DNA of 64,000 nucleotides from contig CABQQR010000002.1 of assembly GCA_902466395.1 (NCBI GenBank), positions 110,184 through 174,183 of the forward strand, read 5' to 3'. The notes under the pieces were generated by a model. The model worked only from the letters and a program-made list of their open reading frames with translations. It made no database searches and was not told where the DNA came from. Positions 1,522-44,217 of the stretch are shown one piece after another. The DNA comes from an uncultured Collinsella sp. (GTDB taxonomy: Bacteria > Actinomycetota > Coriobacteriia > Coriobacteriales > Coriobacteriaceae). Numbering within the stretch: position 1 is the stretch's first letter; the number at the start of each line of letters is the position of its first letter. A program made the position numbers and the translations under genes.

Positions 1522-3969
1522 ATGCATATGCCGAGCAAAATCGAAAAAAAGCAAGCCGCTGCAAGGCTGCGTAAGCCGCCGCGCGACTTCTCGTACACGC
1601 AGAACCGAGAGCTCAGCTGGCTGCGCTTTGACAACCGTGTGCTTGACGAAGCCTTCGACGAGACCGTTCCGCTGTTCGAGCGGCTAAAGTTCGTGTCGAT
1701 TTTCGAGTCTAACCTCGATGAGTTTCTCATGGTGCGCGTGGGCGGCCTGTCCGATCTGGCAGAGCTCAAAAAACAGCCTGTCGACAACAAGAGCAATATG
1801 ACCGCCTCCGAACAGGTCGATGCTGTCATGGCCGAAATGCCCGGGCTCCTTACCCGATGGGAGTCCATCTTTAAGAGCATCGAGGGCAAGCTCGACACCC
1901 TGGGCGTTCACCGCGCCCGCATCGATTCGCTTACGCCCGAGGAGCGCACCTTTGTAACCCGTTACTTCCAGGCCTACGTGTCGCCGGTCATCTCACCGCT
2001 GGTGATTGACCCGCGCCACCCCTTCCCCAACCTGCGCAACGGCGCACTCTACCTGGCCTGCGGCCTGGACGGCGTCACCGACGAGGAGAGTCTGCTGGGC
2101 CTTATCGAGATTCCCACCTCGATGAACCGCGTGGTCGAGATCCCCTCGCCCACCGGCACCTACTCCTACATCTTGCTCGAGGACGTCATCCTCGCCTGCC
2201 TGGACAGCTGCTTTGGCTCCTATAAGCCGCTCGACCGCGCGCTCATCCGCGTCACCCGCAACGCCGACATCGACCCGGACGGCGAGGGCGTCGAGGAGGA
2301 AGAGGATTACCGTCAGCACATGAAGCGCATCCTCAAGAAACGCTTGCGCCTGCAGCCGGTGGTGCTCGCGGTCTCGGGGTCGCTCGAGAAGGCGACGCTC
2401 AAGACCATCCGCAAGGCGCTCGAGCTTTCTCGCCGCTCGGTCTTTACCTGCGATATCCCGCTCGACCTGGGCTACGTCTTCGGCATTGAGGGCAAGATTC
2501 CCGAGCATCTACGCAACGAGCTGCTCTTTACGCCGTTTAAGCCGCAGCCCAACCCCACCATCGACATGTCCCGTTCCATCCGCGAGCAGGTGCTGCAGCA
2601 CGACAAGCTGCTCTTTTACCCTTACGAGGCCATGAATCCGTTCTTGGACCTGGTGCACGAAGCAGCCTACGACCCCGAGTGCATCTCGCTGCGCATCACG
2701 CTCTACCGCGTGGCCAAGCAGAGCCGCCTGTGCGAGTCGCTGATCGATGCCGCCGAGAACGGCAAAGAGGTCACGGTGCTCATGGAGCTCCGCGCGCGCT
2801 TTGACGAGCAGAACAACATCGAGTGGGCCGAGCGCCTGGAAGAGGCCGGCTGCACCGTCATCTACGGCTCCGAGGGCTTTAAGTGCCACTCCAAGATCTG
2901 CCAGCTCACCTATCGCGAGGGCATGGCGCTAACGCGCCTAACGCTGCTGGGCACCGGCAACTTTAACGAGAAGACGGCCAAACTCTACAGCGACTTTATG
3001 CTCATGACCGCCCACCCCGGTATCGGCGAGGACGCCAACCTGTTCTTCCGCAACCTGTCGCTGGGCAATCTGCGCGGCGATTACCGCTTCCTGGGCGTGG
3101 CGCCGGTCGGTCTCAAGCCGCTCATCATGCGCGGCCTGGACCGCGAGATCCAGCGCGCCCTCGCTGGCGAGCCCGCCCGCGTGTTCTTTAAGCTCAACTC
3201 GCTCACCGACCGCGAGGTCATCGACAAGATCGCCGAGGCATCGTGCGCAGGAGTCCGCGTGGACATGATCATCCGCGGCATCTCGTGCCTCAAGCCGGGA
3301 GTTCCTGGCAAGACCGAGAACGTGCATGTCCGTTCTATCGTCGGACGCTTTTTGGAGCATGCCCGTGTTTACGCTTTCGGCGTGGACTCGGACATGATTT
3401 ACCTGAGCTCGGCCGACATGATGACGCGCAACACCGAGCACCGCGTGGAGATCGCCTTCCCCGTGCTCGACCCCACCTGCCGCGCCCTGGTGCACGAGTA
3501 CATGGGTATGCAGCTGCGCGACAACGTGAAGGCACGTAGCCTGACGAGCGACGGCACCTGGGTTCCCGTAGAGCGAAAAGAGGGTGAGAAGCCCTTTAAC
3601 TCGCAGGAGTTCCTGTTGGAGCGCGCTTATCGCAACGCCGAGTCCGCAGCCGTGGCTTCGGAGCCCGTCGCCAAAGTAAAACCGGAATCCGCACCTGTTC
3701 TGGGCCCCAAGCCCGAGCCACAGCCGGCAGCCTCTAAGGTACAGAAGGTCCAGGCGACCGTCATCGAGCCCGACCTGGAGCCCGAGCCCGAGCCTGCACC
3801 CCAGCCTCAGCCGCAGACCGCCAAGCCCGCGCCCCAGGCAAGCGCCCGCCGCGAGAAACCCGCCGGCAAGACCAAAGCCATCGAGCGCCATCGCCCCGGT
3901 CGCGTGCGCATGGGCTTGGGCCTAATCGGCCTAGGACTCAAGACGCTCATTACCGGCAAGACGAAATAG
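1522..3969 (+). CDS. ppk: Polyphosphate kinase 1 with a roughly 115-aa Pro/Glu/Gln-rich C-terminal extension
   Basis: PPK1 N-terminal hallmark MPSKIEKK...FSYTQNRELSWLRFDNRVLDEA...ERLKFVSIFESNLDEFLMVRVGGL, with full-length PPK architecture. The start is placed at the ATG at 1522 (MHMPSK); 1483 and 1528 are alternatives. Confidence 0.9.
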   Translation: MHMPSKIEKKQAAARLRKPPRDFSYTQNRELSWLRFDNRVLDEAFDETVPLFERLKFVSIFESNLDEFLMVRVGGLSDLAELKKQPVDNKSNMTASEQVDAVMAEMPGLLTRWESIFKSIEGKLDTLGVHRARIDSLTPEERTFVTRYFQAYVSPVISPLVIDPRHPFPNLRNGALYLACGLDGVTDEESLLGLIEIPTSMNRVVEIPSPTGTYSYILLEDVILACLDSCFGSYKPLDRALIRVTRNADIDPDGEGVEEEEDYRQHMKRILKKRLRLQPVVLAVSGSLEKATLKTIRKALELSRRSVFTCDIPLDLGYVFGIEGKIPEHLRNELLFTPFKPQPNPTIDMSRSIREQVLQHDKLLFYPYEAMNPFLDLVHEAAYDPECISLRITLYRVAKQSRLCESLIDAAENGKEVTVLMELRARFDEQNNIEWAERLEEAGCTVIYGSEGFKCHSKICQLTYREGMALTRLTLLGTGNFNEKTAKLYSDFMLMTAHPGIGEDANLFFRNLSLGNLRGDYRFLGVAPVGLKPLIMRGLDREIQRALAGEPARVFFKLNSLTDREVIDKIAEASCAGVRVDMIIRGISCLKPGVPGKTENVHVRSIVGRFLEHARVYAFGVDSDMIYLSSADMMTRNTEHRVEIAFPVLDPTCRALVHEYMGMQLRDNVKARSLTSDGTWVPVERKEGEKPFNSQEFLLERAYRNAESAAVASEPVAKVKPESAPVLGPKPEPQPAASKVQKVQATVIEPDLEPEPEPAPQPQPQTAKPAPQASARREKPAGKTKAIERHRPGRVRMGLGLIGLGLKTLITGKTK

Positions 3970-27368: not shown

Positions 27369-29297
27369 ATGAGGAAAACTCACCCCGTCAACGCGCTCAA
27401 GAAGCTAGGCATAGGCCTCGCCTTTGGAGCTGCAACCATCATGTCCATGCCGACCTCTGCGCTCGCCTGCACGCAGATGTACATGGGCAAAGACCTAACA
27501 GCCGACGGCAACACGTACTACGGCCGCGCCGAGGACTTTGGCAAGCGCTATCTCAAGCACTTCGGCATCGAACCCTCACATGGTCCCGGCCATATCTACG
27601 GCTCAGACGAGTCCGAATTCGCATACACCTCGCCCAATACCACGTATCGCTATAGTTACGTGCGCGACCATCCTTCGCAGTGGCACGGACGCTGGGATGC
27701 CTACTCCGAAGCGGGCATCAATGAGAAAGGTGTATCCTGCTCCGCCACGCTGACCACATACATGAATGCAGACGCTAAGGCGGCTGATCCCCTTACCGAC
27801 ACTGGCATTGGCGAGTATAGCTACGGCAGCGTCATCTTGGGCGAAAGCGCTACGGCACGTGAGGGTGTCGAGCTCCTCGGCAAAATCATCGACGAGCAGG
27901 GCGCCTGCGGCAACGATCAGCTCATCATCGCCGATAACAACGAGACCTGGCTGTTCGCCGCGCTTTCCGGCCACCAGTGGATAGCCATGAAGCTCACCGA
28001 TGACGTCGCGTCGCTCAACCCCAACATCGGCAACCTCAACTACAAGGTCAATCTCAACGACGGTGCAAACTGCCTCCACTCCGAGGGCATCGAGTCCATG
28101 CCCGTGGAAAAGGGCTTTGCTAAGTACTTTGACGATGGCCAGTTCGACGTTGCCCAGACCTATGGTGAAGAAATTAGCGAAAAGGCCATGCATTCTTGGA
28201 CACGCTATGTCCAGGGCCGTGCCTACTTCGACGCACCGCTTGCCGAGGGCACCGACTATGAAATCAAAAAGGACACCAGTAAAAAACCGCGCGCTAAAGT
28301 TGGCGCTATGGTAAATGAAATGCAGCCGCTATTCTTCCAGCCCGGTAAGTCCAACTGGAACACCTTTGAGATGATTCGCGCGTTTGGCAACCGTGGCGAG
28401 AAGGTTCCCGGCCTCAACGCAAACACCGACGGCGCCTACGCCATCGGCACCGAAACCAACACCGAGATCAACCTCTTCCAGATTCGTCGCGGCCTTGATC
28501 CCGAAGTCGCTACCATCCAGTGGGAGATGCTCTCCCGCGCCGCGTACTCCGTCGCCATCCCCTTCTACTCCGCTCTGATGACTGAGGTCAGCCCGTACTT
28601 CAGCGATCAGACCGTCTCCTTCGATCACTGCGATGAGGCAGACATCGTAAACAACGAGGAGCCGGAGAACTCCATCAACTACGTCCTCATGGACATCAGC
28701 ACTCTCTGCTTTGAAAACCCTGACACCCTTGGCGTCGGTGTCCGCGCCTACCTCGACGCGCTCCAGAATGAGCTCATCGAGCAGAACAAGGAAGTTGACG
28801 CCGCCATGCTGGCCGAAACGACCACCGAGGGCCGCACCGCCCTGGCCAACAAGGCCGGCAATGCTGCTACCGAGAACACCTACAAGAAGTGCAAGGCTCT
28901 GCTCCAGGAGATGCGCGCCTATCAGAAGGCAGGAAACTTTGACCAGCCCTTCACCCCGAGCGACCTGAATACCGAGACCAACGGCCTCAAGGAGTCCATC
29001 ACCTACGCCAAGGACGCCCTTGCCACCGACCCGGTCACCCCGGATCAGCCCGGCACTCCCGAGCAGCCCGGTACCCCCGAGCAGCCCGCTAAGCCCGAGC
29101 AGCCCACCACCAAGCCCGAGAAGCCTGGCAAGTCGGACACCACGACCACGGTAACCACCAACAAGACGAACACCAAGGGCGGCCTGCCCACCACCGGTGA
29201 TCGTTTTGATGGCCGCGTGGTGGCTGCATTCGCCATCACTGGCGTTGCCGTCATCTCCGCGGGCGGTTACTTCCTCTACCGTCGCAATAAGGAGTAA
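27369..29297 (+). CDS. Secreted C69-family dipeptidase with a C-terminal LPXTG cell-wall sorting signal
   Basis: A signal peptide is followed by the Cys nucleophile of the C69/Ntn fold (LACTQMYMGKD). A PEQPGTPEQPAKPEQP linker repeat comes next, then LPTTG plus a hydrophobic stretch and an RRNKE tail. Confidence 0.8.
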   Translation: MRKTHPVNALKKLGIGLAFGAATIMSMPTSALACTQMYMGKDLTADGNTYYGRAEDFGKRYLKHFGIEPSHGPGHIYGSDESEFAYTSPNTTYRYSYVRDHPSQWHGRWDAYSEAGINEKGVSCSATLTTYMNADAKAADPLTDTGIGEYSYGSVILGESATAREGVELLGKIIDEQGACGNDQLIIADNNETWLFAALSGHQWIAMKLTDDVASLNPNIGNLNYKVNLNDGANCLHSEGIESMPVEKGFAKYFDDGQFDVAQTYGEEISEKAMHSWTRYVQGRAYFDAPLAEGTDYEIKKDTSKKPRAKVGAMVNEMQPLFFQPGKSNWNTFEMIRAFGNRGEKVPGLNANTDGAYAIGTETNTEINLFQIRRGLDPEVATIQWEMLSRAAYSVAIPFYSALMTEVSPYFSDQTVSFDHCDEADIVNNEEPENSINYVLMDISTLCFENPDTLGVGVRAYLDALQNELIEQNKEVDAAMLAETTTEGRTALANKAGNAATENTYKKCKALLQEMRAYQKAGNFDQPFTPSDLNTETNGLKESITYAKDALATDPVTPDQPGTPEQPGTPEQPAKPEQPTTKPEKPGKSDTTTTVTTNKTNTKGGLPTTGDRFDGRVVAAFAITGVAVISAGGYFLYRRNKE

Positions 29298-29304
29298 CGT
29301 CTTA

Positions 29305-29356
29305 GCTGAGCGGGCAAGGCAGCAATGGCAGCCTCGCCCGCTCAGCCCGCTCTTTT
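29305..29356 (+). terminator. Rho-independent terminator of the dipeptidase gene
   Basis: Stem gctgagcgggc / gcccgctcagc, followed by ccgctctttt. Confidence 0.65.
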
Positions 29357-29377
29357 GACCGGCGGGAAACCCGCCTG

Positions 29378-29430
29378 AAATCTTTTTAAAAAAGATTTCC
29401 CCGCACACACTTCGCTGTGCTATAGTGCAG
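29378..29430 (+). promoter_or_regulatory. Candidate promoter/operator: near-perfect 21-bp AT palindrome followed by an extended -10 box (TGcTATAGT)
   Basis: aaatctttttaaaaaagattt at 29378-29398, with tgctatagt at 29418-29426. It lies about 60 nt upstream of the leader peptide RBS. Confidence 0.35.
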
Positions 29431-29484
29431 CGCAACAGCAACTAGGTGCGACCGCGCCACGGCATCACGAAAGGAGCCACCAAC

Positions 29485-29553
29485 ATGAAGAACACGATGA
29501 AGTCTCTCAACAACTGGTGGTGGCGTGATGCGAATACGATCGGTCGACAGTGA
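29485..29553 (+). CDS. Trp-rich regulatory leader peptide (22 aa), MKNTMKSLNNWWWRDANTIGRQ
   Basis: AAAGGAG RBS 8 nt before the ATG. There are three consecutive TGG codons at 29515-29523. It sits in the 5' leader of the ECF S-component gene and resembles trp attenuator leaders (E. coli TrpL ...KGWWRTS). Confidence 0.6.
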   Translation: MKNTMKSLNNWWWRDANTIGRQ

Positions 29554-29590
29554 GTCCCTCACGCCTGTTTTTGCGCTCTAGGTGATTGGA

Positions 29591-29622
29591 AGGCCTCCGG
29601 TTTCGACCGGGGGCCTTTTTCT
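29591..29622 (+). terminator. Attenuator-like intrinsic terminator between the leader peptide and the transporter gene
   Basis: aggcctccgg tttcga ccgggggcct followed by ttttt. It lies 38 nt after the leader stop codon and 76 nt before the S-component start. Confidence 0.5.
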
Positions 29623-29697
29623 ATCTCGAGCCCGATCGCATTCGCATCACGCGCCTCCGCTTTTCTCTTGCACTCCCATTCCGAAAGGATTTTCACC

Positions 29698-30270
29698 ATG
29701 TCTCAGAACACCACCGCCGCCCAACCCCGCACCGTCCAGACCGCCGACCGCGGCAAACTCGATGTCCGCGCCCTCGTCCTGCTCGCCATCCTGCTCGCCG
29801 CCGGCTTCATCCTCAACTTCACCGTCGGCAAGGCCATCTCGGGCATCTCGGGCGGCATGATCAGCCCCGAGTTTATCATCTCGGCCTTCTGCCTCACCAT
29901 CCTGGTCATTCGCCCCAACATCGGCCAGGCGCTCGTCATTGGCCTCATCTCGGCTGCCGTGATCCAGATCACCACCACTTCGCCGTTCGTCGATTTTGCC
30001 GCCGAGGGCATCGCCGCCATGCTCATGGCCGGCATCGTCAACGCCGCCGGCAAGAACGGTCAGGTCAAGCCCGCGATCGCCATTGTCGCAACCTTCCTGA
30101 CCACCTTTGTCTCCGGCGTCATCTTCATGGTCATCAAGATGGCCATGCTCGGCGTGGTGGGCGAGCTCGCCGCCGCTATGCTGCCCGTCGTCGCCATGAC
30201 CGCCGTCTTTAACGCCATTCTGGTCGGTGCCCTCTACTTGCCCATCCAGAAGGCCCTTAGGCTCAATTAA
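29698..30270 (+). CDS. ECF transporter substrate-specific (S) component, TrpP-like (putative tryptophan)
   Basis: About 190-aa polytopic membrane protein with Gly-rich TM helices, immediately upstream of the ECF A1A2 and T genes. The Trp assignment is inferred from the Trp-codon leader peptide and general resemblance to the TrpP family. Confidence 0.65.
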   Translation: MSQNTTAAQPRTVQTADRGKLDVRALVLLAILLAAGFILNFTVGKAISGISGGMISPEFIISAFCLTILVIRPNIGQALVIGLISAAVIQITTTSPFVDFAAEGIAAMLMAGIVNAAGKNGQVKPAIAIVATFLTTFVSGVIFMVIKMAMLGVVGELAAAMLPVVAMTAVFNAILVGALYLPIQKALRLN

Positions 30271-30482
30271 CCCGCTCGGCTTTACGAGCCACCCCATCTT
30301 GGCGTTCATTCGTCGCTCGCGTACCCAAGTACGCTTCGCTCCTCTTTCGCGCCAACCTGGGGCCCCTCGTAAAGCCGTCTCCGCACTCCACCAACAAAGA
30401 CTGTCCCAAACAACTAGCTCTTGGGGACGTTCTTAAACGACCAGTCATTAAAGAACGTCCCCAATGACTATGAAAGGTATCC

Positions 30483-32234
30483 ATGGAAACGATCATCAAC
30501 GTCGACGATGTCTCGTTCTCCTATGGCACGCAGACCGAGCAGGCGCTCAGCCACATCTCGCTCAGCGTGAACAAGGGAGATTTCATCGGCATCATCGGGC
30601 CCTCGGGCGCCGGCAAGTCCACGCTTGCCGCTTGCCTGTCGGGTGCCGTGCCCCACCACTACACCGGCACGTTCTTTGGGTCCGTCATGGTTAACGGCCA
30701 CGACACCTGCGAAGCCTCGCTCACCGACGTGTCGCAAATCGTCGGCAGCGTGCTGCAGGATATCGACACGCAGATGGTCGCCTCGGTCGTCGAGGACGAG
30801 ATGCTCTTTGGCCTCGAGAACTTTGGCGTTCCCCACGACCAGATCGAGCAGCGCGTGAGCGAAACGCTCGAGACCGTCGGCATCAGCGACCTGCGCGACC
30901 GCGAGATCGCCACCCTCTCGGGCGGACAGAAGCAAAAGGTAGCCATCGCCGCCATCCTCGCCATGCGTCCGCGCGTCTTGGTTCTCGACGAGCCCACCGC
31001 GGCACTCGACCCCGCCAGCTCCACGTTGGTCTTCGAGACGCTGCGTGAGGCAAACCGCACACTTGGAATCACCATCGTCGTCGTTGAGCAAAAGGTCGCC
31101 CTGCTCTCGGAGTACTGCAACCGCGTGCTCGTGCTCAACCATGGCGAAATCGCGCTGCAGGGCGAACCACACGAGGTCTTCGCGCATACCGACGAGCTCC
31201 GTGCCATCGGCGTCGACTGCCCTCGCGTCACGCGTATCTTCAATAGCCTCGAGGCCGATGGCCTGGTAAGCGGTACCCCTTGCTTGGATGTCGATGAGGC
31301 CGAGCGCCTGATTTCGGGCATCGTCGACCCCGCACACGCGGCCAGCGAAGCCCAGGCGCCCGCCGGCTCACCGCACGCACCGTCGTTGCGCCCTCATGCC
31401 AAGGACGCCGAACCCGTACTCACCTTCGACCATGTTGAGTTTGCCTATCCCAATGGCGGCGCCGCCGTACACGACCTTAGCCTGACGCTCTATCCCGGCG
31501 AGCTCGTGGGCATCGTCGGCCAAAACGGTGCCGGCAAGACCACGCTCACCAAGCTGCTCACAGGCCTGCTCAAGCCCGCCTCGGGCAGCGTGCGCGTCAC
31601 GGGACTGGATACCGCGGCCGTTCCCACGAGCCGCATCGCCCGCGAAGTCGCAACCCTCTTCCAAAACCCCGACCGCCAGATCTGCAAGGATACCGTACTC
31701 GACGAGGTCGCTTTTGGCCTGGAGCTTGCCGGCATCGACCGTGCCGAGGCTCTGCGTCGCGCTCGACTCGTTATCGACCGCTTTGGCCTGCCTGCCGATG
31801 AGGCACCTTTCTCGCTTTCGCGCGGCCAGCGACAAATGGTGGCGCTTGCCTCCGTCGTAGTGGTTGAGCCCAAGATCGTCGTGCTCGACGAGCCCACGAG
31901 CGGCCTTGATTACCGCGAGTGCATGACCGTCATGGAAACGGTGCGCACCATGGCCGAGCGCGGCTGCGCCGTTATCATGGTCTGCCACGATATGGAAGTC
32001 GTCTCGGATTTTGCCGAGCGCATTGTGGTAATGGCCGACGGTCGCATCCTCGACCGCGGCCGCACGCACGAGCTATTCTCGAACATCGATCTCATGCAGC
32101 GTGCCTATGTTGAGCCGCCCCAGGTTATTGAACTCTCGCGCCGTCTGGCATCTTCCGTCTCGCCCGCTTTTGCGCAGGTGAGCGAGGTCACCGATGTCGT
32201 TCGCATTACCAAGGAGATGGTCCGCCGTGGTTAA
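30483..32234 (+). CDS. ECF transporter ATPase, fused EcfA1-EcfA2 (two ABC domains)
   Basis: Walker A GPSGAGKST and GQNGAGKTT, with signatures LSGGQKQKVAIA and LSRGQRQMVALA, 583 aa. Confidence 0.9.
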   Translation: METIINVDDVSFSYGTQTEQALSHISLSVNKGDFIGIIGPSGAGKSTLAACLSGAVPHHYTGTFFGSVMVNGHDTCEASLTDVSQIVGSVLQDIDTQMVASVVEDEMLFGLENFGVPHDQIEQRVSETLETVGISDLRDREIATLSGGQKQKVAIAAILAMRPRVLVLDEPTAALDPASSTLVFETLREANRTLGITIVVVEQKVALLSEYCNRVLVLNHGEIALQGEPHEVFAHTDELRAIGVDCPRVTRIFNSLEADGLVSGTPCLDVDEAERLISGIVDPAHAASEAQAPAGSPHAPSLRPHAKDAEPVLTFDHVEFAYPNGGAAVHDLSLTLYPGELVGIVGQNGAGKTTLTKLLTGLLKPASGSVRVTGLDTAAVPTSRIAREVATLFQNPDRQICKDTVLDEVAFGLELAGIDRAEALRRARLVIDRFGLPADEAPFSLSRGQRQMVALASVVVVEPKIVVLDEPTSGLDYRECMTVMETVRTMAERGCAVIMVCHDMEVVSDFAERIVVMADGRILDRGRTHELFSNIDLMQRAYVEPPQVIELSRRLASSVSPAFAQVSEVTDVVRITKEMVRRG

Positions 32235-32973
32235 CGTCATCGACTACATGCCAGGCGATACGCTGCTGCATCGCCTGAACCCCGTCGTCAAATTGGGCCT
32301 CGCCGCCGCCATCATCGTCGGCATCTTCTTGTCCGACACCTACGTGGCGCTGCTGGGCTTTTTGGTGCTCACCCTTGCGCTGGGTGCCTATGCCGGCGTC
32401 GTCGACCGTCTGTTCTCGCTGCTCAAGTTGCTGATTCCGCTCGCGCTTATCATGCTGGTGCTCCAGCTTGCCTTTATGCGCGATGGCAACGTTGTGTGGG
32501 GCTTTATCACCGACACGGGCCTCATCACAGGATCGAAGGCCTGTCTGCGCCTGCTGGGTGTGGCGTTACCGCTCATCCTCATGCTCATGGTGACCAAGCT
32601 CAACGACCTTGCCAACGCCTGCGTCGAGGTGCTGCACGTACCGTATCGCTATGCCTTCACCTTTACCACGGCGCTGCGCTTTGTGCCGGTGTTTGGTCAG
32701 GAGATGAACGCCATCATGGAGGCGCAGACCGCACGCGGCGTCGAGTACGACACCAAGAACCCCATCAAGAAGCTTAAGCTCATGCTGCCACTGTGCGTGC
32801 CACTGCTCATCTCGAGCGTGGGCAAGACCGATGCCACAGCCTTGGCGGCAGAACAGCGCGGCTTCTATCTGCGCACGCGCGCCAGCTCGTACAAGCGCTA
32901 CCCCATCAAGGGCCTGGACATCGCCGTGCTCGTCGCCAGCATCGCCCTCATCGCCATCGGCTTCCTGTTCTAG
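32225..32973 (+). CDS. ecfT: ECF transporter transmembrane component EcfT (CbiQ family)
   Basis: EcfT/CbiQ profile (…ALRFVPVFGQEMNAIMEAQTARGV…). The start is probably the GTG at 32225 overlapping the EcfA stop; the ORF track gives 32194. Confidence 0.85.
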
Positions 32974-41528: not shown

Positions 41529-41907
41529 AGAGGTTCCTTTCATGGGTGCGCGTCGGTTGCCATCTATTGTGCCGCAAGATTGCCACACCCTTATTTCCAG
41601 CATATCCTTGCATTTTTTAAACGTTATACACGAATACTCTTGTTTGGTAAAGTGCAACGTGGTAGGGTTTTTACCACTTGATAGAGGCGCGGGCACGAAG
41701 AACCGCGGGCGAGCCGGCAGGCTTTGACCCCGTGGGGAGGCGAAACCCGCCGAACCGGGTTTTTCGGGCACGAACAACCTGGTGGGCCTGCGGGAAACAC
41801 CCACAGGACTGTCTGCAGCAATGCGGGAGCGCTATCCGGACATTGGGTCCTTGCTATGCGGATTCGATGCGCAGATGGCGCCGTCTGGATAGCGAGGTTT
41901 ACGGGAC

Positions 41908-44217
41908 ATGGCACTGACTCCCAACGAGGCATATGCGGCAAAGCAGCCGTTTGTGGACAAGGAGACGCTCGAGCATATCGTCGAGCAATTCCCCACGCCG
42001 TTTCATCTATACGACGAGGCAGGCATCCGCCGCAACATGCAAGAAGTGCGCGACGCCTTTGCATGGAACCCGGGCTTTAAGGAATACTTTGCCGTCAAGG
42101 CCAACCCCAACCTGGCGCTCATCTCCATTCTCAACGAATACGGCTGCGGCTGCGATTGCTCGAGCTATACCGAGCTCATGATCGCCCGCTCGCTGGGCAT
42201 CACGGGGCATGACATCATGTTCTCGTCCAACGACACGCCGGCGGCCGACTTTGAGTTCGCTGACAAGCTGGGCGCCATCGTCAACTTCGACGACATCAGC
42301 CACATCGAGTTCTTTGAGCGCGTTGCGGGGCCCATTCCCAAGACGGTCAGCTGCCGCTTTAATCCGGGCGGCCTGTTCCAGCTCTCCAACGGCATCATGG
42401 ACAACCCGGGCGACTCCAAATATGGCATGACCACCGAGCAGCTCTTCGAAGCCTTCCGCACGCTCAAGGCCAAGGGCGCCGAGCGCTTTGGCATCCACGC
42501 ATTCCTTGCCAGCAACACCGTCACCAACGACTACTACCCCAAGCTCGCGCGCATCCTCTTTGAGCTTGCCGTGCGCCTGGAGCGCGAGACCGGCGCACAC
42601 GTCGCCTTCATCAATCTGTCCGGCGGCGTTGGTATCCCCTATCTGCCCGAGCAGCAGGCCAACGACATCCACGCCATCGGTGAAGGGGTGCACACGGCCT
42701 ACGACGAGATTCTGGTTCCCGCCGGCATGGGCGATGTGGCGATCTGTACCGAGATGGGCCGCTTTATGATGGGCCCCTATGGGTGCCTGGTCACCAAGGC
42801 CATCCACGAGAAGCAAATCTACAAGGACTATATCGGCGTGGACGCCAGTGCCGTTGACCTTATTCGTCCCGCCATGTATGGCGCCTACCACCACATTACG
42901 GTGATGGGCCAGCCGGGTGGTGACGACAAGACCACAGCGCCCGCTACGGACACCTACGACATCACGGGCAATCTGTGCGAGAACAACGATAAGTTCGCCA
43001 TCGACCGCGAGCTGCCGCATATCGACATGGGCGACCTGCTCGTGATCCACGATACCGGTGCGCATGGTTACTCCATGGGCTACAACTACAACGGACGGCT
43101 GCGCTCCGCCGAGGTGCTACTGCGCCCCGATGGCTCGGCCGACCTCATCCGCCGCGCCGAGCGCCCGGGCGACTATTTTGCCACGCTCGACGTGCTACCG
43201 TGCGGACGAGAGCTGCTGGCCAAATCGCGCGCCGAAAGCGCTCGACGTCGCGCTCAGGACGAGCGCTTGGCCGTCGCCGCCCAATGGAATAAACGCATCC
43301 AGATCGCGGAAGCGAAGGAGAAGAACATGGATATCCGCAATCTCGAGGGCTCAATCGTCGCCCTGGTTACGCCGTTTAAAAAGGACGGCAGTGTCGACTT
43401 TGACGCGCTTGGGCGCCTTATCGATTTCCACCTGCAAAACGGCACCGACGCTATCCTCACCCTGGGCACCACCGGCGAGAGCGCCACGATGACCGATGAC
43501 GAGGACAACTCCGTCGTCGCCGCCGTGGTCAAGCATGTTGCAGGCCGTGTCCCCGTCATCGCCGGCTCGGGCTCCAACTCCACGCAAACCATGCTCACCA
43601 AGTCGCTCACCTACCAGGGCTTGGGAGCCGACGGCCTGCTGCTCATCACCCCCTACTACAACAAGTCCAACGAAGAGGGCATCTATCAGCACTTTAAGAC
43701 CGTTGCCGATGCCGTAGATATCCCCTGCATCCTGTACAACATCCCCGGCCGCTGCGGCTGCGGCATCAGCGTGCGCAACGTGGAGCGCCTGGCCGCGCAC
43801 CCCAACATCATGGGCATCAAGGAAGCCTCAGGCAACGTCGCTTACGCAGCCAAGATCGCCCACCTGCTGTCCGATGACTTCCGCATGTACTCGGGCGAGG
43901 ACGCACTTACCGTACCGCTCATGAGCCTGGGCGCCTCGGGCACCATCAGCGTGTGGGCAGACGTTCAGCCGCAGCTCGTGCATGACATGTGCCGCGCCTA
44001 TTTGGACGGTGACGTGGCGCGTGCCCGCGATATCCAAATTGCCGGCCAGCCGCTCATCAATGCCCTCTTTAGTGAGGTCAACCCCATCCCCGTCAAAGAG
44101 GCGCTCGCTCAGATGGGTATGATCGAGGCAAACTACCGCATGCCGCTGTGCCCCATGGCAAACGACACGCGTACTGCACTTACCGATGCTCTGAAGGGAG
44201 CTGGTCTGCTTGATTAA
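41908..44217 (+). CDS. lysA-dapA: In-frame fusion of diaminopimelate decarboxylase (LysA, aa 1-about 440) and 4-hydroxy-tetrahydrodipicolinate synthase (DapA, aa about 474-769)
   Basis: The N-terminal half is an ODC/LysA fold (…FAVKANPN…, …GGGVGIPY…, …CENNDKFA…). A Lys/Arg/Glu/Ala-rich linker follows. The C-terminal half is DapA (…LVTPF…GTTGES…YNIPGR…). There is no stop codon between the halves, and an internal AAGGAG RBS plus ATG sits at 43327. Confidence 0.75.
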   Translation: MALTPNEAYAAKQPFVDKETLEHIVEQFPTPFHLYDEAGIRRNMQEVRDAFAWNPGFKEYFAVKANPNLALISILNEYGCGCDCSSYTELMIARSLGITGHDIMFSSNDTPAADFEFADKLGAIVNFDDISHIEFFERVAGPIPKTVSCRFNPGGLFQLSNGIMDNPGDSKYGMTTEQLFEAFRTLKAKGAERFGIHAFLASNTVTNDYYPKLARILFELAVRLERETGAHVAFINLSGGVGIPYLPEQQANDIHAIGEGVHTAYDEILVPAGMGDVAICTEMGRFMMGPYGCLVTKAIHEKQIYKDYIGVDASAVDLIRPAMYGAYHHITVMGQPGGDDKTTAPATDTYDITGNLCENNDKFAIDRELPHIDMGDLLVIHDTGAHGYSMGYNYNGRLRSAEVLLRPDGSADLIRRAERPGDYFATLDVLPCGRELLAKSRAESARRRAQDERLAVAAQWNKRIQIAEAKEKNMDIRNLEGSIVALVTPFKKDGSVDFDALGRLIDFHLQNGTDAILTLGTTGESATMTDDEDNSVVAAVVKHVAGRVPVIAGSGSNSTQTMLTKSLTYQGLGADGLLLITPYYNKSNEEGIYQHFKTVADAVDIPCILYNIPGRCGCGISVRNVERLAAHPNIMGIKEASGNVAYAAKIAHLLSDDFRMYSGEDALTVPLMSLGASGTISVWADVQPQLVHDMCRAYLDGDVARARDIQIAGQPLINALFSEVNPIPVKEALAQMGMIEANYRMPLCPMANDTRTALTDALKGAGLLD

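Follow-up and report, generated by a model that had tools for sequence, protein, structure and literature searches.

What would a short open reading frame (ORF) with three consecutive tryptophan codons be sensing in front of a transporter operon? The question is raised by positions 29,378 to 30,270 of the 64,000-nucleotide stretch of DNA analysed here (hereafter the window; contig CABQQR010000002.1 of an uncultured Collinsella sp.), in which such an ORF and an intrinsic terminator precede the gene for the S component of an energy-coupling factor (ECF) importer. The locus is likely a ribosome-mediated attenuator, induced by tryptophan starvation, of a tryptophan-type ECF importer operon in a Coriobacteriia lineage predicted to be auxotrophic for tryptophan. 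An initial annotation of this DNA had proposed, in essence, that a leader with Trp codons controls a terminator in front of a TrpP-type S component. That proposal is supported by the family match of the S component and by the retention of the three Trp codons (WWW) in related leaders.

The leader ORF and its signals

The leader and the signals read from its sequence are the following:
29418-29426, + strand: predicted leader promoter, extended -10 box TGcTATAGT, read from the sequence, with a transcription start expected near 29432-34
29470-29476, + strand: Shine-Dalgarno (SD) sequence of the leader ORF, AAAGGAG, 8 nt 5' of the ATG, read from the sequence
29476-29485, + strand: SD-ATG spacer GCCACCAACA, complementary to the Trp codons at 29515-29524
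29485-29553, + strand: leader ORF of 22 codons, from ATG (29485-87) to TGA (29551-53), encoding MKNTMKSLNNWWWRDANTIGRQ
29515-29523, + strand: three consecutive Trp codons TGGTGGTGG (codons 11-13), the putative regulatory codons

The 22-codon ORF, the good ribosome-binding site (RBS) and the three TGG codons in a row that had been described at the outset are all present in the sequence. As in trpL-type leaders, a short ORF with its own RBS has, towards its 3' end, successive codons for the amino acid that would be sensed. The sequence TGGTGGTGG is found in a single copy on the + strand of the window and in one more on the - strand (chance expectation, 0.46). The spacer and the Trp codons form a 10-nt inverted repeat, 90% complementary, whose pairing is present in ribosome-free folds; once the WWW region has been transcribed, this pairing might possibly shut off further translation of the leader.

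The AT palindrome and the extended -10 box noted previously upstream of the leader are likewise both there, although a full -35/-10 promoter was not recovered by a strict sigma-70 scan. The block TGTGCTATAGTGCAGCGCAAC is unchanged in locus L084, and other lineages have similar TAnnGT boxes. The palindrome (29377-87 / 29389-99, 11+11 nt, 100% complementary, GAAATCTTTTT-A-AAAAAGATTTC) adjoins the -35 position of the leader promoter and is missing from L084; it could serve as an operator or UP-like element, or belong to the termination region of the upstream gene.

Conservation of the leader among relatives

Related loci were gathered as 80 close genome loci, by look-ups of proteins 76-84% identical, and, with the Olsenella uli orthologue as seed, as 80 metagenome loci. 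The genome-collection scan gave only loci 98-100% identical, the wider diversity coming from metagenome contigs and exact-protein look-ups. The leader set used below comprises 17 groups at <93% identity and 53 distinct core sequences. The three Trp codons lie upstream in 78 of the 80 close loci, the remaining two having ~100 nt or less of upstream sequence, and the leader ORF is found in 82 of 86 more distant loci, the other four having at most 225 nt upstream. All related loci with sufficient upstream DNA share the peptide pattern …N-W-W-W-[R/H]-x4-[I/V/L/A/N/F]-G-R-x-stop; the nucleotide motif was written as TGGTGGTGGCG-N14-TCGGTCGA-N3-TGA. WWW is unchanged in all 53 distinct cores and its distance from the stop is exactly nine codons in all leaders, while variation is found in the 7-14 residues at the N-terminus and in the four that follow R/H. 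The regulatory codons are thus kept and the rest of the peptide is free, as in trpL-type leaders. The single exception to WWW is locus L170 (TGGTGGTGT), whose third codon is TGT (WWC); near-identical L171 keeps TGG. The WWW leader also stands before operons in which the identity of the first S protein drops to 45-46% (L171, MNRSACMSNSWWWHDSYAIGRS; L172, MMTQISTSKGMNWWWRSWSSFGRL, from a genome of 48% GC). Loss of the WWW ORF from orthologous leaders had been named beforehand, together with a match of the S component to another family, as a finding that would speak against the proposal; the ORF is in fact kept wherever the upstream DNA suffices, L171 and L172 included.

The genes upstream of the leader vary by lineage (MarR/DegV, DAGK, helicase, aminotransferase, ribosomal proteins), so that the leader moves with the transporter and not with its surroundings. 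The leader SD is AAAGGAG or AGAGGAG in nearly all 17 groups, with GAAGGGGGGG in the L118 group, and a CCA/GCC-rich SD-ATG spacer is found in all lineages. The leader Gly-Arg is encoded by GGT in 52 of 53 and by CGA in 53 of 53 distinct leaders, although CGA accounts for just 2 of the 88 Arg codons in five neighbouring genes. Because GGT-CGA is invariant despite the rarity of CGA, the conserved C-terminus of the peptide is best read as conserved RNA.

Two further observations concern the leader region. The Asn codon AAC (29512-29514; columns 4-6 of alignment A2) stands directly 5' of WWW in essentially all leaders, with A4 and A5 invariant and C6 kept in at least 90%. A lone relative 47% identical (L175, 1364-1500) shares both the TGTGCTATAGT promoter box and the upstream DAGK gene, and is without leader peptide, terminator or downstream ECF genes.

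Terminator, 1:2 helix and candidate antiterminator

Three elements of the leader RNA could make up the switch:
29522-29528, + strand: segment 1, GGCGUGA, overlapping the last Trp codon; its partner is UCACGCC (29559-65), just 3' of the stop codon
29539-29568, + strand: segment 2, candidate 5' strand of the antiterminator, made of the last codons UCGGUCGA, the stop (GUGAG), UCACGCC (29559-65) and …GCCU
29588-29620, + strand: intrinsic terminator, with A tract GGAA, 5' arm GGCCUCCGGU (29592-601), loop UUCG, 3' arm ACCGGGGGCC (29606-15) and U5 (29616-20)

The terminator begins 38 nt after the leader stop codon, as first described, and is confirmed by the sequence, by RNAfold, which lengthens the stem to 14 bp through pairs between the A tract and the U tract, and by a pattern scan. 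An intrinsic terminator between leader ORF and gene, here a GC-rich stem of 10-14 bp followed by U5, is a mark of the trpL type; hairpin and U tract are found in all 17 diverged groups, with covarying pairs and hairpin energies of -20 to -29 kcal/mol. The helix between segment 1 and its partner (the 1:2 helix; columns 14-20 and 52-58 of alignment A2) is paired in 95.7% of cells over the 53 sequences, and three of its pairs show compensatory changes (e.g. UA in 38 and CG in 14). RNAalifold, given no prior input, recovers both the terminator and this helix. Pairing of 29522-28 with 29559-65 corresponds to the helix that pre-empts the antiterminator of trpL-type leaders when they are not translated.

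Folding the transcript with the leader masked, the check recommended in the initial annotation, did not bring out the alternative structure: the terminator persists under any ribosome mask. A candidate antiterminator emerged instead from comparison of the relatives. The last five leader codons, the stop and ~12 nt beyond are complementary to 29590-29611, that is, to the A tract, the 5' arm, the loop and the first bases of the 3' arm of the terminator. The antiterminator is therefore likely to be formed by 29539-68 with 29590-29611, a pairing that had not been seen in the first reading of the sequence. The duplex amounts to -18 to -32 kcal/mol across the 17 groups (RNAduplex against the terminator), with -18.4 for L001, a close relative used as a stand-in for the window (its A tract differs by one base; arms A and B of the long-range helix described below are identical). 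The complementarity exceeds that of dinucleotide shuffles in 17 of 17 lineages (z = -1.1 to -3.5, mean -2.1). When a ribosome was set on WWW and the transcript was ended after the 5' arm and loop, the 5' arm had by then found an upstream partner in 16 of 17 lineages.

The geometry of the leader suits such a switch. A ribosome typically occupies the RNA from ~12 nt 5' to ~15 nt 3' of its P site. With a Trp codon in the A site, the estimated cover extends to ~29527-33, includes segment 1 and leaves 29539 onward free, the antiterminator strand starting ~6 nt past the stalled ribosome. With a ribosome on the stop codon, ~29537-66 would be hidden, which is essentially the entire antiterminator strand. 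The nine-codon spacing between WWW and stop would thus be fixed because of the geometry of the ribosome on this strand, and the invariance of GGT-CGA, rare codon included, argues for a constraint on the strand at the RNA level.

These elements suggest the following course of events. Transcription would start ~50 nt 5' of the leader ATG, and the 22-codon leader would then be translated by a ribosome. With plentiful Trp-tRNA the ribosome would reach UGA and cover the antiterminator strand (~29537-29566), so that the terminator forms and transcription stops. With scarce Trp-tRNA it would stall at WWW, cover segment 1 and leave 29539 onward free; the free strand would capture the 5' arm and loop of the terminator before the 3' arm is made, allowing read-through into the transporter genes. 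Without translation, segment 1 would pair with segment 2 (29522-28 with 29559-65), making termination the default. We infer from this arrangement that the leader is translated, that ribosomes stall at WWW when Trp-tRNA is scarce and that antitermination is kinetic, giving Trp-responsive read-through.

The constant WWW-stop spacing, the kept C-terminal G-R-x and the UGA stop in 52 of 53 distinct leaders are also what one might expect of a leader resembling TnaC, whose nascent peptide would sense free tryptophan, arrest at UGA and have the operon induced by tryptophan. We hold this to be very improbable. The leaders are conserved at the nucleotide level (GGT-CGA, with its rare codon), which their pairing with the terminator accounts for. 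A run of three Trp codons is the mark of starvation sensing, and a ribosome at the stop codon would hide the antiterminator strand and so favour termination, where TnaC-like sensing demands induction. In a predicted Trp auxotroph, moreover, an importer would be expected to respond to scarcity. TnaC is defined by a single W, D16 and P24 before the stop and is Rho-dependent; these hallmarks have no counterpart in the window leader.

The transporter operon and its family

The starvation-responsive attenuator proposed above precedes the following genes:
29683-29689, + strand: Shine-Dalgarno sequence of the S gene, GAAAGGA, read from the sequence
29698-30270, + strand: ECF S component, TrpP-like, a membrane protein of 190 aa with no Trp residues
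30483-32234, + strand: fused EcfA-EcfA' ATPase of 583 aa with two ABC domains (TIGR04520/TIGR04521, E = 1e-138 / 1e-132)
32194-32973, + strand: EcfT transmembrane component (PF02361 CbiQ, E = 4.7e-26)

The EcfA/A'/T module adjoins the S gene on its 3' side, and the order S component–ecfAA'–ecfT is repeated in relatives. On the 5' side of the leader lies a C69 peptidase gene (LPXTG-anchored product) that has a terminator hairpin of its own at 29305-46. The window S component is 98-100% identical to proteins of Collinsella aerofaciens isolates and of Collinsella metagenome-assembled genomes. The DNA belongs to C. aerofaciens or to a near relative of it. Its sole Pfam match is PF17099 TrpP (E = 3e-5, full-length, 2-169/169). 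The same family is matched by 20 of 26 proteins (the window protein and 25 full-length relatives, 28-47% identical; best E = 3.6e-15), and none of the 26 convincingly matches another S-component family; among diverged orthologues, seven of seven match TrpP alone. A profile search of 1.84 billion cluster representatives showed the family to be small, with 233 clusters at E ≤ 1e-3. By transitive homology, the window S component is treated here as a divergent member of TrpP. It had been proposed at the outset that the S component would fall in TrpP rather than in a QueT- or BioY-type family; PF17099 being its sole match, this holds, with a profile score slightly below threshold.

An AlphaFold2 model of the S component (predicted local distance difference test score, 69) has six helices, as the ECF S-component fold requires. 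Its top matches in the PDB are RibU, ThiT, PanT and other S components (template-modelling scores 0.43-0.62, probability 0.84-1.0, though with E-values of just 0.08-2.5).

In some relatives the same leader is followed by a further TrpP paralogue that has 44% identity to the first (L084, 3639-4184; L086, 3390-3935; L089, 3164-3709), and L088 has a shortened copy of it (3163-3366). No second attenuator was found between the tandem S paralogues of L084, L086 and L089. In L170 and L171 the paralogue-2 type is the sole S gene, and the WWW leader (WWC in L170) is still present. In the window, 212 nt separate the S gene from ecfAA', and this spacer contains a perfect 14-bp hairpin at 30421-30464 (TTGGGGACGTTCTT / AAGAACGTCCCCAA) with a 16-nt loop and no U tract. 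This may be a processing or stability element setting the ratio of S component to ECF module.

Tryptophan as the predicted cargo

Two more distant relatives (L173 and L174, ~34% identical, with split EcfA/EcfA' genes) have T-box leaders in place of the peptide leader (RF00230, E = 4e-11 in L173 and 6e-20 in L174, both below the Rfam gathering score). In both, the specifier position reads AAA-UGG-A, hence Trp. The WWW leader in Coriobacteriia and the convergent UGG T-boxes in Firmicutes-like relatives are, taken together, strong and independent, if indirect, evidence from sequence for tryptophan import by this little-characterised branch of TrpP, and tryptophan is thus the predicted cargo of the window S component. 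Collinsella and Olsenella account for 41.6% of the predicted actinobacterial Trp auxotrophs in a survey of 26,277 genomes (PMC10665431). The operon proteins themselves contain one Trp in 1014 residues (0/190 in the S component, 0/583 in EcfAA', 1/241 in EcfT), the ORFs of the window overall having ~0.63%, itself a low value.

Weighing the proposed attenuator

Several observations count against the attenuator as proposed, or lessen the force of what favours it. The antiterminator of the window's own lineage is the weakest of all (-16 to -18 against -24 kcal/mol; z = -1.4, with 25 of 300 shuffles doing as well). The equilibrium lies on the side of the terminator in all lineages, by 2.5 to 13.5 kcal/mol (10.5 in L001), so that the antiterminator would have to act kinetically; the E. 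coli trp attenuator likewise acts kinetically. No covariation was found in the antiterminator helix UCGGUCGA:UCGACCGG, because both of its strands are nearly invariant. The S component scores 24.3 bits, just under the PF17099 gathering cut-off of 27.2. The Trp depletion of the operon is modestly significant (P ~0.01, on a rough background). Finally, the strict sigma-70 scan yielded no -35/-10 pair at the leader promoter, which is for this reason given as a predicted one.

A strong, equilibrium-favoured terminator would also befit an independent unit, in which the short ORF and hairpin make a small protein or a small RNA and the transporter has its own promoter downstream. In some lineages, too, the untranslated region (UTR) that follows the terminator is long, up to ~270 nt. 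In the window, however, the gap is just 77 nt, and no promoter-like site was found between terminator and S gene. The leader-terminator unit always accompanies the transporter operon in spite of differing upstream neighbours, it stays at the front of the operon whichever S paralogue comes first, and the conservation of its peptide is limited to WWW and the codons engaged in RNA pairing. We accordingly give very little credence to an independent unit and take the leader and terminator as parts of the transporter operon.

A long-range RNA helix in the Collinsella clade

The initial annotation had also pointed to a 20-nt complement between the segment following the Trp codons and a site beyond the terminator, as part of a classical attenuator layout. 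The two strands are:
29523-29543, + strand: arm A, overlapping segment 1 and the start of the antiterminator strand
29632-29652, + strand: arm B, 3' of the termination point, in the Collinsella clade only

The pairing is real and extends over 21 nt: the inverted repeat is 95% complementary, its arms lie 88 nt apart, and 46 nt separate the end of arm B from the transporter ATG (29698). The helix is part of the minimum free energy fold of 29430-29720 (z = -4.24; 0 of 200 shuffles as good). Arm A pairs with the real UTR of L001 at -43 kcal/mol and with shuffled UTRs at -25.7 ± 3.4. Over 50 distinct sequences of the Collinsella clade the 21 pairs are 93.8% paired; four pairs are changed on both sides (e.g. 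AU in 36 and GC in 14) and eight on one side only, the one-sided changes being G·U or U·G wobbles throughout. The covariation score was reached by 0 of 500 column shuffles, and sliding the partner by 1-3 columns reduces the pairing to 12-43%. Since G·U pairs are tolerated, the helix points to RNA pairing rather than to a DNA operator. Within the clade the duplex amounts to -36 to -52 kcal/mol, with z between -2.7 and -5.7 in eight of nine groups and -1.2 in the ninth (L096). The spacer between terminator and arm B ranges from ~10 to ~55 nt among relatives. In the Olsenella uli group a candidate long-range pairing of -36 kcal/mol was found to be no better than shuffles (z = -1.1), and the helix is absent (z zero or positive) from six other lineages that retain the attenuator. 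Judged by these comparisons, the long-range complement is a genuine RNA helix, an addition of the Collinsella clade that encloses the terminator.

The part assigned to the complement in the classical layout did not hold, in that the helix follows the terminator and is clade-specific. As an antiterminator it was rejected: arm B is transcribed after the U tract, so the helix cannot act as one, the terminator folds under any mask, and the helix is missing where the attenuator is kept. A translational switch for the S gene found no support either, masking of arm A causing no consistent change in the unpaired probability of the S-gene SD and AUG in 16 lineages. The helix would form solely on read-through transcripts, where three functions come into question. 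It might be an OFF lock or a substrate of RNase III, under the control of the stalled ribosome; it might stabilise the 5' end; or it might shut off re-translation of the leader.

It is conceivable that this helix is the main, post-transcriptional switch in the Collinsella clade and that the terminator is merely a leaky constitutive brake. The WWW-stalled ribosome would mask arm A, and after its departure a duplex of 21-30 bp would lead to RNase III cleavage or altered stability. Arm A exactly matches the stretch that would lie beneath the stalled ribosome, the classical antiterminator is weakest in this very lineage, and the pairing frequency, compensatory and G·U changes, shuffles and z values given above (down to -5.7) show the helix to be under selection at the RNA level. 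We nonetheless regard this possibility as quite unlikely. The helix is missing from Olsenella-like and other lineages that keep leader and terminator, and thus can be neither ancestral nor general as a mechanism; it does not consistently alter how accessible the S-gene RBS is predicted to be; in a natural variant (L142) arm B is divided by a C-rich insertion of 33 nt; and the helix might equally stabilise the mRNA instead of marking it for decay.

The helix could alternatively be added to the attenuator preferred here, so that in the Collinsella clade one leader peptide would serve two Trp checkpoints, release of the antiterminator and masking of arm A on the full-length mRNA. Continued stalling would block the 21-30 bp duplex of arms A and B around the terminator hairpin; upon the return of Trp the duplex would close as an OFF lock, for instance as an RNase III substrate, and existing transporter mRNA would be silenced post-transcriptionally. 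This extension is speculative and, on balance, we think it unlikely. If true, it would represent a cis-acting, ribosome-gated switch of mRNA fate added to a classical attenuator, and the helix in any case offers a testable example of an attenuator with an additional RNA element.

A second pairing of arm A, with a site just upstream of the leader RBS, had been reported along with the first. It is present in the window, where GCAUCACG (29462-69) pairs with 29524-31 in the ribosome-free fold, but the partner is not conserved in other lineages.

Two direct repeats were observed around these elements. The 5' arm of the terminator, GCCTCCGGTTT (29593-29603), recurs as GCCTCCGCTTT just 3' of arm B (29653-29663), and the leader RBS context CATCACGAAAGGA (29463-29475) recurs as CATTCCGAAAGGA at the S-gene RBS (29677-29689). 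They are possibly the trace of a duplication. The UTR between terminator and S-gene RBS (29650-29682, and its equivalents in L081, L084, L086, L091 and L093) appears by eye to be C-rich and G-poor in every lineage inspected, a composition typical of Rho loading sites.

Comparison with known tryptophan-responsive systems

In its tandem UGG leader, GC-rich terminator and U tract, the window leader resembles trpL attenuators known from E. coli and, with WW or WWW, from Corynebacterium and Streptomyces; the proposal shares with them mutually exclusive 1:2, 2:3 and 3:4 pairings read by the position of the ribosome. Actinobacterial attenuators with double or triple UGG have been described before biosynthetic trp operons or trpS2, with no transporter reported there (Seliverstov et al. 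2005, PMC1262725). Whereas known trpL leaders precede biosynthesis genes or trpS2, that of the window would control an ECF importer, in hosts predicted to lack Trp synthesis. The gGCC-rGCy-GGCC triple of the Corynebacterium and Streptomyces attenuators is not evident in the window leader, and the long-range helix around the terminator in the Collinsella clade is without described counterpart. The trpL RNA of Sinorhizobium meliloti (rnTrpL; PMC6614838) is likewise a Trp attenuator RNA with a second base-pairing function; it differs in acting in trans on other mRNAs, while arms A and B pair in cis on the read-through transcript.

Searching 29250-29800 against Rfam 15 at E ≤ 10 gave chance hairpin matches only, and no match to the T-box (RF00230) even at this threshold. 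Trp T-box control of TrpP-family S components in Firmicutes has in common with the window the transporter family, the signal (charged versus uncharged tRNA-Trp) and read-through of a terminator. The sensor differs, being a tRNA-binding RNA in the T-box and a putative translated leader in the window.

The trpP gene (yhaG) of Bacillus subtilis was reportedly found by Sarsero, Merino and Yanofsky in 2000 to be regulated by TRAP. There too an uptake gene of the TrpP family is tied to Trp supply through its 5' leader RNA, but TRAP is a protein, activated by Trp, with (G/U)AG repeats as its binding sites. No array of this kind (9-11 (G/U)AG triplets, 2-3 nt apart) was found in the window leader, 29430-29700 having five scattered triplets with a longest chain of 1.

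The name TrpP is also borne by a Corynebacterium glutamicum protein (cg3357) of the SdpI/YhfL family, with three transmembrane helices and a leaderless gene, now thought to be regulatory (PMC11995493). It shares with the window protein the name and an old annotation as tryptophan permease, beside a trp operon with a WWW leader, yet is unrelated to PF17099 and to the window protein.

In the literature searched, no Trp leader peptide was found before an ECF or TrpP transporter or in Coriobacteriia, an earlier in-silico mention being possible. The locus would thus add an ECF importer to the biosynthetic operons under leader-peptide attenuation, in the class Coriobacteriia. It would explain how abundant gut Actinobacteria predicted to be Trp auxotrophs (Collinsella, Olsenella) match uptake to need, and would bear on competition for tryptophan and on the production of indole and Trp metabolites in the gut.

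Another regulatory RNA in the window

A lysine riboswitch (RF00168, 74.8 bits, E = 1e-17) was found at 41674-41842 on the + strand, just 5' of an ORF of 769 aa (41908-44217).

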